A stretch of DNA of 64,000 nucleotides, from sequence record NC_100327.1; one strand, given 5' to 3'. A program made the translations under genes and the position numbers. This document shows, piece by piece, positions 62,540 to 63,844 of the stretch (its first letter is position 1; every line of letters starts with the position of its first letter). The notes beneath the pieces are model-generated. The model was not told the DNA's origin, ran no database searches, and saw nothing but the letters and a program-made list of their open reading frames with translations. The stretch comes from a phage.

Positions 62540-62575
62540 CGAAAAAACCCCGCAGCTATACAGCTAACGGGGCGG
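62540..62575 (-). terminator. rho-independent terminator
   Basis: GC-rich hairpin containing AGCUGUAUAGCU palindrome followed by UUUUUUCG on minus RNA. Confidence 0.5.
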
Positions 62576-62944: not shown

Positions 62945-63021
62945 TGGTCTCCACGGAGTGATTCGAACACTCGACCTCCTGATCCCAAATCAGGCGCTCT
63001 ACCAAGCTGAGCTACGCGGAG
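62945..63021 (-). tRNA. tRNA-Pro (anticodon UGG), CCA encoded
   Basis: Manual fold: 7-bp acceptor CUCCGCG/CGUGGAG, D-arm GCUC...GAGC, anticodon loop UUUGGGA, T-arm GUCGAGUGUUCGAAUCACUC. Confidence 0.7.
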
Positions 63022-63032
63022 TATTTATTATT

Positions 63033-63107
63033 TGGTGGCCCTGGGTGGAATTGAACCACCGTCTGGCGATTATGAGTCGCTTGCTTGAACCTTCCAGCTA
63101 CAGGGCC
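63033..63107 (-). tRNA. tRNA-Met (anticodon CAU; initiator, elongator or lysidine-Ile not distinguishable), CCA encoded
   Basis: Acceptor GGCCCUG/CAGGGCC, anticodon loop CUCAUAA, T-arm GGUGGUUCAAUUCCACC. Confidence 0.6.
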
Positions 63108-63108
63108 A

Positions 63109-63184
63109 TGGTGCTGATGGCAGGACTTGAACCCGCAACCTATTGATTACAAATCAATTGCACTACCGATTGTGCTACATCAGC
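63109..63184 (-). tRNA. tRNA-Thr (anticodon UGU), CCA encoded
   Basis: Acceptor GCUGAUG/CAUCAGC, anticodon arm AUUGA-UUUGUAA-UCAAU, T-arm GCGGGUUCAAGUCCUGC. Confidence 0.7.
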
Positions 63185-63191
63185 AAAAAGG

Positions 63192-63288
63192 TGCTAGGTG
63201 ATGGAATCGAACCACCTATGTATTCAACGACTACCTCGTCTATTTTCAGGATTAAAAATCCTCGCCCTTGCCAAAGGGCTTACCTAGC
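63192..63288 (-). tRNA. atypical tRNA-like element (97 nt; possible UUU anticodon, oversized variable region); may be a pseudo-tRNA
   Basis: Perfect 7-bp acceptor GCUAGGU/ACCUAGC, D-arm GCCC-UUUGGCAA-GGGC, canonical T-arm GGUGG-UUCGAUU-CCAUC; ~30 nt between anticodon-like hairpin and T-arm; CCA not fully encoded. Confidence 0.35.
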
Positions 63289-63386
63289 TCAGTATGTTGA
63301 CCATGTTGCTAGTCGGCGATGACGACTGTAACATTTGATAATCCGGTTCTGCTTCCGACTTTCGCTTAATTACAAGGTCAACAATG

Positions 63387-63477
63387 TGGCGGAGAGTAAT
63401 GGAATCGAACCATCATCGAGTCATCCTCAACGGGACGGTTTTCAAGACCGCTTGAGCACCATTGCTCCCTACCCTCC
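63387..63477 (-). tRNA. tRNA-Ser (anticodon UGA), long variable arm, CCA encoded
   Basis: Acceptor GGAGGGU/ACUCUCC, anticodon arm GCGGU-CUUGAAA-ACCGU, long variable arm, T-arm GAUGG-UUCGAUU-CCAUU. Confidence 0.65.
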
Positions 63478-63591
63478 TTTATAAATTATACTGATAATGA
63501 CACTGATTTTCGAGCAGTTAGTGACTAGTATAAACGACGATAAATATCAATGCCATTATCTGTATTATTTATGCATCTAAAAATATAAATT

Positions 63592-63678
63592 TGGTGGGGA
63601 GTGGTGGAGTCGAACCACCCGAGTCGCAATGACAATAGATTTACAGTCTACACCGCTACCTCTACGGGATAACTCCCC
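63592..63678 (-). tRNA. tRNA-Tyr (anticodon GUA), long variable arm, CCA encoded
   Basis: Acceptor GGGGAGU/ACUCCCC, anticodon arm GUAGA-CUGUAAA-UCUAU, T-arm GGUGG-UUCGACU-CCACC. Confidence 0.65.
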
Positions 63679-63682
63679 AATT

Positions 63683-63757
63683 TGGCACCCCGTACTGGAC
63701 TCGAACCAGTGTCAACGGCTTAGAAGGCCGCTGCTTTATCCACTAAGCTAACAGGGC
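63683..63757 (-). tRNA. tRNA-Arg (anticodon UCU), CCA encoded
   Basis: Acceptor GCCCUGU/ACGGGGU with G-U pairs, anticodon arm GCGGC-CUUCUAA-GCCGU, T-arm ACUGG-UUCGAGU-CCAGU. Confidence 0.65.
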
Positions 63758-63815: not shown

Positions 63816-63844
63816 ATATTACACTGTTAAGCAAAGTTTGTCAA
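63816..63844 (-). promoter_or_regulatory. sigma70-like promoter upstream of tRNA cluster (TTGACA-N17-TAATAT on minus strand)
   Basis: -35 is revcomp of 63839-63844, -10 is revcomp of 63816-63821; ~60 nt upstream of first tRNA. Confidence 0.5.

Follow-up and report, generated by a model that had tools for sequence, protein, structure and literature searches.

A conserved family of tRNA-shaped RNA genes in the tRNA operons of rV5-like and related phages, with a possible tRNA-Lys mimic among its members

An unusual member of a phage tRNA operon

The stretch of DNA analysed here (the window: all 64,000 nt taken from phage sequence record NC_100327.1) carries a tRNA operon, and our subject is an RNA gene, hereafter the element, that lies in this operon between the genes for tRNA-Ser and tRNA-Thr. 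The 901 nt around it are 99.6% identical to phage Murica, and many other phages match likewise; the window is that of an rV5-like coliphage (Vequintavirus). Along the minus strand the cluster reads Arg(UCU), Tyr(GUA), Ser(UGA), element, Thr(UGU), Met/Ile(CAU), Pro(UGG). A sequence-only reading had described a 7-bp acceptor stem, a D-type hairpin and a canonical T arm at this place, and ARAGORN, Rfam and the minimum free energy (MFE) fold all confirmed these, on the minus strand. The element is a cloverleaf of 97-99 nt (63288-63190) in which RNA position p corresponds to window position 63289 - p: G1 is 63288, the discriminator A is 63192, CC occupies 63191-63190, and a U stands at the A76 site. 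That is, the 3' end reads A-C-C-U and CCA is encoded only partly, as had been noticed, unlike in the four other cluster tRNAs that were read for this feature (Thr, Met, Pro and Ser), all of which encode CCA. The RNA reads:

5' half: GCUAGGU-AA-GCCC-UUUGGCAA-GGGC-G-AGGA-UUUUUAA-UCCU
3' half: GAAAAUA-GACGA-GGUAG-UCGUU-GAAUACAUA-GGUGG-UUCGAUU-CCAUC-ACCUAGC-A-CC, then U

ARAGORN, a check proposed with the sequence-only reading, called 63190-63288(-) as 'tRNA-???' with the 4-base anticodon atcc. The Rfam tRNA model (RF00005) matched 63192-63288(-) at 35.5 bits (E = 2.2e-5; gathering score 29), at the price of a 26-nt insertion in the variable region. The MFE fold (-34.2 kcal/mol, z = -3.66, 0 of 200 shuffles equally stable) contains the acceptor stem (7 bp), the D hairpin, a 6-bp hairpin AGGAUU/AAUCCU, a further hairpin GACGA-GGUAG-UCGUU and the T arm. 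The features, all on the minus strand, are as follows, with those of the operon as a whole at the end.

63190..63288, minus: tRNA-shaped RNA gene, whole (ARAGORN; Rfam tRNA model; 103.7 bits on the family model R1 described below; MFE cloverleaf)
63282..63288, minus: acceptor stem, 5' strand GCUAGGU, pairing with ACCUAGC at 63193-63199 (7 of 7 pairs formed)
63264..63279, minus: D arm GCCC-UUUGGCAA-GGGC (4 of 4 stem pairs covary; can also be drawn as 6 bp with a 4-nt loop UGGC)
63248..63262, minus: anticodon-like arm AGGA-UUUUUAA-UCCU, 15 nt (3 of 4 stem pairs covary)
63241..63247, minus: 5' junction strand GAAAAUA (from column counts, GAAAA invariant save for one GUAAA)
63226..63240, minus: extra (variable-arm) hairpin GACGA-GGUAG-UCGUU (in the MFE fold; a hairpin in nearly every member)
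63217..63225, minus: 3' junction strand GAAUACAUA (last seven bases AUACAUA identical in 26 of 26 members)
63200..63216, minus: T arm GGUGG-UUCGAUU-CCAUC (canonical T loop; UA/CG covariation at one pair, GU/GC at another)
62945..63757, minus: tRNA cluster (ARAGORN; Rfam)
63816..63844, minus: sigma-70-like promoter TTGACA-17-TAATAT upstream of tRNA-Arg (consensus scan; annotated P(tRNA) in the rV5 reference record)

A8 and A9 (63281-63280) precede the D arm, and an invariant G stands on either side of the anticodon-like arm (63263 and 63247). The promoter at 63844-63816 would drive the whole cluster, the element included.

A family found in phages

Sensitive BLAST searches recovered full-length copies from Av-05 (Avunavirus, 93%), Salmonella phage KE22 (75%) and the Cronobacter EspYZU phages (72%), as well as matches limited to the 3' end in PVP-SE1, 4MG, Klebsiella phages and Proteus phage Mydo; when the loci of these partial matches were read, each held the whole element. 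More copies came from pattern scans of IMG/VR and from one metagenome scan, and a second BLAST with the PVP-SE1 copy as query added Erwinia, Raoultella and further Klebsiella phages. R1, a covariance model built from 14 distinct sequences, assigned 83-121 bits to true members and at most 34 bits to all other sequences, among them ordinary tRNAs for Ser, Tyr and Leu. The family has 26 distinct members, from four Vequintavirinae genera and metagenomes.

A pattern scan of 185,579 bacterial and archaeal genomes gave nine matches, none of them a member. Two additional matches to the pattern CCTGAAAATA...GAATACATAGG (L015, L023) lie inside coding sequence and were dismissed as chance, and a pattern for the 5' half gave 92 stretches, among which the new loci searched all scored at most 21 bits on R1 and yielded no new members. 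As far as these searches reached, the family appears confined to phages, namely Vequintavirinae and unclassified relatives.

The equivalent locus in relatives, a comparison that the sequence-only reading had put forward, holds no standard tRNA; the same non-standard architecture is found there, uncalled by ARAGORN at any of the relatives' loci. RF00005 at E <= 0.01 matched none of the copies in Av-05, KE22, EspYZU15, 4MG, PVP-SE1, BIS47 and Mydo. When the Av-05, PVP-SE1, BIS47 and pEa56 loci were rescanned at E <= 10, the selenocysteine tRNA model was the sole match over the element, below its threshold, and no family in Rfam 15 covers the non-rV5 members.

Selection on the fold and on two single strands

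Covariation was counted over 27 distinct aligned rows, in an alignment fitted to the model. Standard pairs filled 99.8% of stem cells, a fraction that fell to 33-46% once the 3' partners were slid by 1-3 columns, which together with the gap in R1 scores puts the element far beyond chance. Both sides had changed in 15 of the 21 pairs (acceptor 6 of 7, D stem 4 of 4, anticodon-like stem 3 of 4, T stem 1 of 5, plus the tertiary elbow pair), and compensatory changes occurred in all four stems among genera whose elements are only 71-78% identical. RNAalifold applied to a plain MAFFT alignment, independent of the model, returned the same cloverleaf, with the D stem of the family lengthened through invariant U-A pairs. 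The elbow pair joins the second G of the D loop (63271) to a C of the T loop (63209); these columns (18 and 93) are the equivalent of tRNA G19:C56, and they read G:C in 19 rows and U:A in eight, with no exceptions. Because this D-loop/T-loop pair covaries, the element should adopt a genuine tRNA L-shape.

Conservation of the element also exceeds that of its surroundings. Between rV5-type and Av-05-type genomes it is 92.7-93.7% identical, as against 72.5% for the neighbouring tRNA-Thr, while tRNA-Ser and the spacers are unalignable; in divergent rV5-type contigs it is 96-98% identical as against 87-92% in the partly alignable spacers. These figures bear on one of the options offered by the sequence-only reading, a pseudo-tRNA, which in its full form would be a decaying, functionless gene conserved merely through the close kinship of the genomes. 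Annotation pipelines do disagree on the element or skip it, its CCA is degenerate in rV5, and it has been lost from phages V18 and O157 typing phage 4; yet decay would be hard to square with compensatory changes in four stems over four genera, with two invariant single-stranded blocks, and with an element that outdoes a bona fide tRNA in conservation and the spacers by far. We regard this explanation as hardly credible.

The two blocks are the A-rich strands that flank the extra hairpin. In the first, GAAAA, columns G43, A45, A46 and A47 are identical in 26 of 26 members and A44 in 25 (the remaining one being GUAAA), and in the second, AUACAUA (columns 79-85), every position is 26/26, so that these single strands are better conserved than the stems. 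A search for Watson-Crick covariation that would pair them with any part of the RNA, in a pseudoknot or tertiary helix, gave nothing beyond phylogenetic correlation; most likely the strands form a junction module or a binding surface. By these comparative signs the element is a functional, selected gene for a tRNA-shaped RNA within a tRNA operon, and among the three options originally offered (a tRNA with an insertion, a pseudo-tRNA, a tRNA-like element) the last fits best.

Two further explanations were weighed. The first is a tRNA-body-dependent ribonucleoprotein or regulatory RNA, unrelated to tRNA-Lys, whose top half, A-rich junction and extra arm would bind a phage or host protein (for example an aminoacyl-tRNA synthetase, EF-Tu, RNase P or E, or the CCA enzyme) with the loop secondary, by analogy with Y RNAs and T4 RNAs C and D. 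Conservation is highest in the body and in the two single-stranded blocks rather than in the loop, and a family-wide function must not depend on loop identity; there is a precedent in T4 rnaC, a non-tRNA stable RNA with a T arm in a phage tRNA cluster, and in Seunavirus and Mydovirus a second tRNA-like gene with unconstrained anticodon loops stands beside the element. On the other hand, a search of the operon for a protein partner gave only an open reading frame (ORF) of family phrog_8729, without a Pfam match, the rV5 genome paper names no RNA ligase, kinase or CCA enzyme (PMC3606486), the element matches neither YrlA nor any other Rfam family, and its loops are fairly conserved in clades rather than drifting freely. 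We consider such a role distinctly unlikely. The second is a processing or punctuation element, an ex-tRNA whose fold directs cleavage by RNase P and at the 3' side and hence the maturation or stability of neighbouring tRNAs. Spacing is indeed tight: in rV5 the element is followed by tRNA-Thr at a distance of 5 nt, in Av-05 tRNA-Thr precedes it by 2 nt, and in the Seunavirus/Mydovirus loci examined 2 nt lie between it and the tRNA-like gene upstream. The stems kept best are those of the acceptor and T arms, which serve as determinants for RNase P. Punctuation leaves unexplained, however, the 11-12 invariant single-stranded nucleotides, a D arm with an elbow pair, the U73-CCA of most genera and the extra hairpin; moreover the neighbouring tRNAs have RNase P determinants of their own, all of which makes this account highly improbable.

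The anticodon-like arm, variable region and 3' end

In the rV5, Av-05 and Erwinia types the anticodon-like arm is 15 nt long; that of Seunavirus/Mydovirus has 16 nt and that of one metagenomic member 14 nt. None of the 26 members has the canonical 17-nt arm (5 bp and a 7-nt loop), the deficit being 1-3 nt. For rV5 the sequence-only reading had drawn a 6-bp hairpin, or alternatively an anticodon arm with loop UUUUUAA. The MFE fold contains the 6-bp hairpin, but the comparative data back a shorter stem: AGGA/UCCU, of 4 bp, closing the 7-nt loop UUUUUAA, or a 5-bp version whose loop has 5 nt. The loops differ among clades:

rV5 clade: UUUUUAA (U33 and A37 present)
Av-05 clade: UUUAUAA
Seunavirus/Mydovirus: CAUCCA, CAGCCA, CCUCCA, CUUCCA (6 nt, or 8 nt with the closing C-G pair open)
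Erwinia type: CAUCAAA, UAUCAAA, AAUCAAG

Outside the rV5/Av-05 group, position 33 is occupied by A, as in the 7-nt loop CAUCAAA, or by C or U, and the loops have 6-8 nt or are shorter; inside clades the loops are fairly conserved (C-N-N-CCA; N-A-UCA-A-N).

Between this arm and the T stem there are 31 nt in rV5 (positions 42-72) and up to about 40 nt in relatives, in keeping with the earlier description of some 30 nt holding a further hairpin and exceeding any normal variable arm. In rV5 the hairpin is flanked by 7 and 9 unpaired nt. Its sequence and length are free to vary while pairing is kept: rV5 GACGA/UCGUU corresponds to Av-05 GACGG/CCGUU (A-U to G-C), and the Erwinia-type stems (GUC/GAC, GCC/GGC, UUCC/GGAA, AGCG/CGCU) share a 12-nt loop, GAAYUAACAGUA. 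At the 3' end, the rV5 type has A-CCU or A-CAU and the Av-05 type U-ACA or C-ACA; every other clade encodes U73-CCA. Judged across the clades, both the extended variable region and the shortened anticodon arm go back to the ancestor of the whole family and are no lineage-specific accident, although 'a tRNA with an insertion' holds as a description of the rV5 copy.

Relation to known RNAs

On sequence grounds the element works like, and descends from, a class II tRNA, yet fails its anticodon-arm and variable-region features. With class II tRNAs (Ser, Leu, Tyr) it shares the 7-bp acceptor, the D arm, the 5-bp T arm with loop UUCGAUU, an elbow of the G18/G19 type, its location in a tRNA operon and, lying between the anticodon and T arms, an extra arm that is base-paired. 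A class II variable arm has roughly 13-21 nt, with 1-3 unpaired nt to the core on each side. In the family, by contrast, the variable region has 31-40 nt, with 5-7 and 7-9 unpaired nt flanking the hairpin (11-12 of them invariant), the anticodon-like arm has 14-16 nt instead of 17, and the element has A8/U14 instead of U8/A14.

The closest conceptual precedent is T4 RNAs C and D (species 1 and 2), stable RNAs that are encoded within a phage tRNA cluster without being tRNAs themselves; a T arm of tRNA type and a terminal stem are present in RNA C. They are, however, longer (139 and 119 nt) and form no full cloverleaf, and homology was rejected, R1 giving 6.9 bits for rnaC and no full-length match for rnaD. 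To our knowledge the function of RNAs C and D is still unknown decades after their discovery.

The tRNA-Sec model (RF01852), the best Rfam match of the non-rV5 copies, resembles the family in its long extra arm, in the possible drawing of the D arm as 6 bp with a 4-nt loop and, for Erwinia-type members, in the UCA loop. We rejected this identity: the copies score 23-38 bits against a gathering score of 47, and the window's ordinary tRNA-Ser itself obtains 41.5 bits on that model. The element differs further in its acceptor/T geometry (7/5, not 8/5), its U73 or A73 in place of G73, the A at position 33 and the UUU loop in rV5. For transfer-messenger RNA (tmRNA), ARAGORN made no call in the window, and over the window and the relatives' loci rescanned the tmRNA models gave weak matches only away from the element. 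YrlA (RF02553, gathering score 69) was also rejected, with no match at the element and weak ones (25 and 19.9 bits) over neighbouring tRNAs; the concept is similar, YrlA being a non-decoding RNA with a tRNA-like acceptor/T/D module (PMC4201824), but the element is without a Ro-binding helix. A lead from the AcrIIIA1 protein-RNA anti-CRISPR was set aside; it concerns host tRNA fragments and no phage tRNA-like gene.

A tRNA-Lys look-alike in the rV5 clade

The rV5 element combines A73 with U34, U35 and U36, which is the complete set of bacterial Lys determinants (PMC9976931 Table 1). Its arm agrees with that of Escherichia coli tRNA-Lys(UUU) at 10 of 11 contiguous positions, GA-(C/U)UUUUAA-UC; the E. 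coli sequence was verified in 5,426 of 5,426 complete E. coli genomes. This same part of tRNA-Lys is a nuclease target: PARIS AriB recognises U36-AAUC|A41 in tRNA-Lys and tRNA-Thr(UGU), and the escape tRNA-Lys of phage T5 carries U39A and A41C, the latter alone substantially inhibiting cleavage (PMC12409363). At the equivalent site the rV5 element reads UAAUCC, with C at the 41-equivalent and U39 kept. Phage tRNA-Lys rescues infection from PrrC (PMC11555353), phage tRNAs more generally counter PARIS, PrrC, retron-Eco7 and P2-OLD (PMC12409363, PMC12445682, PMC11555353), and viral tRNAs have been suggested as possible competitive inhibitors (PMC12409363). The element adjoins a phage tRNA-Thr(UGU) gene, the host tRNA-Thr(UGU) being a further target of AriB and OLD. 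In other members, canonical tRNAs for the triplets in question stand in the same genomes (tRNA-Gly(UCC) in the PVP-SE1 and BIS47 arrays that hold the element; tRNA-Lys(UUU) in BIS47 and contig L026), and the loop triplet of the element is therefore redundant there.

We tentatively favour, at a confidence short of even, the reading that the element is a tRNA mimic and no ordinary decoder, and that in rV5 it is a tRNA-Lys look-alike in conflict with defences that cleave tRNA-Lys. It would be transcribed from the tRNA promoter within a polycistronic precursor and freed by RNase P and 3' trimming, with its ACC end finished by the host CCA-adding enzyme. The invariant A-rich strands would make a family-specific junction module or binding surface, and the rV5 copy would pass as tRNA-Lys to LysRS and to nucleases directed at tRNA-Lys (such as PrrC, RloC and PARIS AriB), which would cleave it poorly because of its short helix, its C at the 41-equivalent and the bulk of its extra domain. 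The result would be a cleavage-resistant competitor or sink, or less probably a back-up lysine donor, in hosts with such defences. Known nuclease-escape tRNAs (T5 tRNA-Lys(UUU) against AriB; phage tRNA-Thr(UGU) against P2-OLD) are likewise phage-encoded, lie in an array and bear the anticodon of the targeted host tRNA, and they show the C41 (PMC12409363) and the shortened anticodon stem (PMC12445682). They differ in being otherwise canonical cloverleaves of 76 nt whose arms have 17 nt, and both decoding and rescue of infection have been demonstrated for them, whereas the rV5 element is one helix layer short, has a 31-nt variable domain and keeps U39.

Several points weigh against the mimic. 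Lysine mimicry would apply to one clade, the loops of other genera being Gly-like (UCC/GCC), UCA-like or unlike anything; with loop identity varying by genus, the family-wide function must be more general than mimicry of tRNA-Lys. The discriminator and loop change together (A73 with UUU; U73 with NCC, G1-C72 and C2-G71), and such identity-consistent co-change is what would be expected of truly aminoacylated RNAs, fitting decoding too. The Av-05-type sister, with UAU and U73 or C73, has no coherent identity. Some phage tRNAs that do function have an anticodon stem of 4 bp (PMC12445682), and the lack of any other tRNA-Lys in rV5-type phages is as compatible with a decoder as with a mimic. High expression would be required of a stoichiometric decoy, and our literature search for transcriptome or small-RNA evidence on the element or on Vequintavirinae phages found none. 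Finally, all eight U:A rows at the elbow have the same D-stem type, and this switch may perhaps be one evolutionary event.

The main rival is that the element is a genuine decoding tRNA-Lys(UUU) in disguise, charged by LysRS, delivered by EF-Tu and reading AAA/AAG, which would replace host tRNA-Lys cut by PrrC, RloC, PARIS or Schlafen, its short stem and large variable domain conferring nuclease resistance. Its 7-nt loop with U33, UUU and A37 completes, with A73, the full Lys identity set, and the closing pairs G30-C40 and A31-U39 are those of E. coli tRNA-Lys; rV5-type phages have no other tRNA-Lys where relatives with large arrays have one, and the C at position 41 corresponds to one of the T5 escape mutations (PMC12409363). 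PVP-SE1 has another odd, otherwise canonical tRNA-Lys with a D-arm insertion, and BASEL and other records label the element tRNA-Lys. The 4-bp stem alone does not exclude decoding, since a functional, P2-OLD-resistant phage tRNA-Thr that has lost the 27-43 pair still decodes (PMC12445682). Nonetheless, the element is one stacking layer short between D stem and loop (15 instead of 17 nt) and has no separate nucleotide 26, whereas the published 4-bp cases keep nucleotides 27 and 43 (PMC12445682); its 31-nt variable region exceeds that of normal long-arm tRNAs; its CCA is unencoded, with a tail that varies (ACCU, ACAU) inside the rV5 type; and the closest sister, the Av-05 type, has U35->A and U73/C73, so that the Lys features are lost between sister genera. 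Other members are unfit for normal decoding (6-nt loops, A33) and yet keep the same body and invariant strands, and the conserved function is therefore not codon reading. We hold the decoder to be unlikely, though a serious contender.

Between mimic and decoder lies a further possibility, on the doubtful side as we judge it: a new class of tRNA-shaped RNAs, matured and aminoacylated but not for normal decoding, whose own junction module would combine the invariant strands GAAAA and AUACAUA with an extra arm on a shortened anticodon limb, whose identity would switch by clade (Lys in rV5, Gly-like in Seunavirus/Mydovirus) and which may act as anti-defence bait or inhibitor of tRNA-targeting nucleases or as a synthetase modulator. 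The Seunavirus/Mydovirus type has U73, G1-C72, C2-G71, C35 and C36, five of the six bacterial Gly determinants (PMC9976931 Table 1). In the PARIS, OLD, Schlafen and retron papers we found nothing on Vequintavirinae.

Loss of the element and other features of the clusters

A deletion in V18 has fused a 5' portion of tRNA-Tyr to a 3' portion of the element (L013 677-743; 34.8 bits on R1); the remnant in O157 typing phage 4 has a Tyr-like 5' portion that continues into the 3' end of the element (L146 837-928; 15.7 bits, no ARAGORN call). The Tyr-like part has anticodon GUA in both chimeras, and intact tRNA-Tyr, tRNA-Ser and element are gone from these viable phages. Such chimeric remnants suggest recombination between the tRNA-like genes of the cluster. 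Two natural Vequintavirus lineages are without an intact element, which is therefore an accessory gene; that status fits what is expected of host-range or counter-defence functions.

The second tRNA-like gene of Seunavirus and Mydovirus lies directly upstream of the element (L007 619-694, L008 618-694, L009 553-626, L010 551-626, L011 551-625). It forms a clean cloverleaf with U1-A72, G73 and an encoded CCA; its loops are of unequal length and differ in sequence (ACGAUUC, ACAGAUCC, AAGAUUC, ACGAUA and, in 4MG, CUGCGCA, which looks canonical), and ARAGORN labels the gene Ile, ???(agat), ???(ga) or Arg. The odd tRNA-Lys of PVP-SE1 (L020 5994-6079 (-)), called 'tRNA-???(ggca)' by ARAGORN, is an 86-nt tRNA-Lys(UUU) with the canonical arm UCCGA-CUUUUAA-UCGGA, A73-CCA and a D-arm insertion of about 10 nt; it is thus a further tRNA-Lys of the subfamily in structural disguise. 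A 70-nt tRNA-like gene in Klebsiella phage KNP2 (L014 928-997 (-)) and coliphage 4MG (L021 192-261 (-)) has a hairpin with a 4-nt loop, CCACU-CGUC-AGUGG, and is called '???(gt)' by ARAGORN.

Within the operon of the window, the CAU tRNA at 63033-63107 (-) is tRNA-Met in most records and tRNA-Ile (codon ATA, implying lysidine modification) in BASEL records. The 114-nt AT-rich spacer between tRNA-Tyr and tRNA-Ser, 63478-63591 (-), holds a long near-perfect hairpin (-26.2 kcal/mol, z = -4.45, with none of 200 shuffles reaching that stability) and a promoter-like TCGAAA-17-TATAAT at 63513-63485. After tRNA-Pro comes the co-transcribed 89-aa ORF of phrog_8729 (62898-62629), for which a Pfam search gave no match, and downstream of it a hairpin resembling an intrinsic terminator, CCCCGUUAGCUGUAUAGCUGCGGGG followed by UUUUUU (62541-62573 (-)), which the consensus scan did not pick up and which is probably the end of the tRNA transcription unit. 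Matches of Plastid-ycf2 (RF04354) to the antisense of tRNA genes (20-41 bits against a gathering score of 65.7), at window 63035-63107 (+) and in L006, L010, L011, L013 and L027, look like a systematic false positive on reverse-complemented tRNAs.

Annotation in public records

The identical sequence is 'tRNA-OTHER (Asp|Gly)' in the Murica record, 'tRNA-Lys, codon AAA' in BASEL phages and 'tRNA-Stop(tta)' in JLBYU08, while the rV5 reference record, like many others, leaves it without annotation. Six tRNAs are listed in the rV5 genome paper, which makes no mention of the element (PMC3606486), and a tRNAscan-based study gives five tRNAs for 136-kb Vequintavirus phages (PMC10698182). Two of the deposited identities failed on comparison. 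The ARAGORN reading behind 'tRNA-Asp|Gly' (anticodon AUCC, stem AUUUU/AAAAU) needs a U-run that is confined to the rV5 and Av-05 types, whereas the AAAA strand is invariant family-wide, and this stem loses to AGGA/UCCU, the one that covaries. 'tRNA-Stop(tta)' is an artefact of counting positions 34-36 from the D stem, with no paired stem in that register and no support from covariation. The element is a conserved family that annotation, not description, has touched: a known annotation problem and an undescribed RNA. Another labelling matter concerns 18 'Campylobacter phage' records (MG0656xx, host mostly C. jejuni) that are 99-100% identical to rV5-like coliphages over this region; these are probably coliphages, mislabelled or carried over from enrichment cultures.

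Implications

The tRNA counts given for rV5-like and PVP-SE1-like phages, which are widely isolated and used in phage therapy and biocontrol, vary among papers owing to the at least four contradictory annotations of the element, or none; the family model, on which members and ordinary tRNAs lie more than 50 bits apart, fixes this problem. The family is a structural variant of the tRNA fold that lies outside every curated family. Cleavage of tRNA is emerging as a major bacterial immune strategy, and phage tRNAs as a counter-measure; a tRNA-Lys anticodon hairpin copied onto an abnormal body makes the rV5 element a candidate RNA decoy or disguised replacement tRNA. The element could also illuminate why phage tRNA clusters hold non-tRNA stable RNAs such as T4 RNAs C and D: if the reading as an anti-defence RNA class is true, it would be the first function for these long-mysterious 'extra' stable RNAs of phage tRNA clusters.

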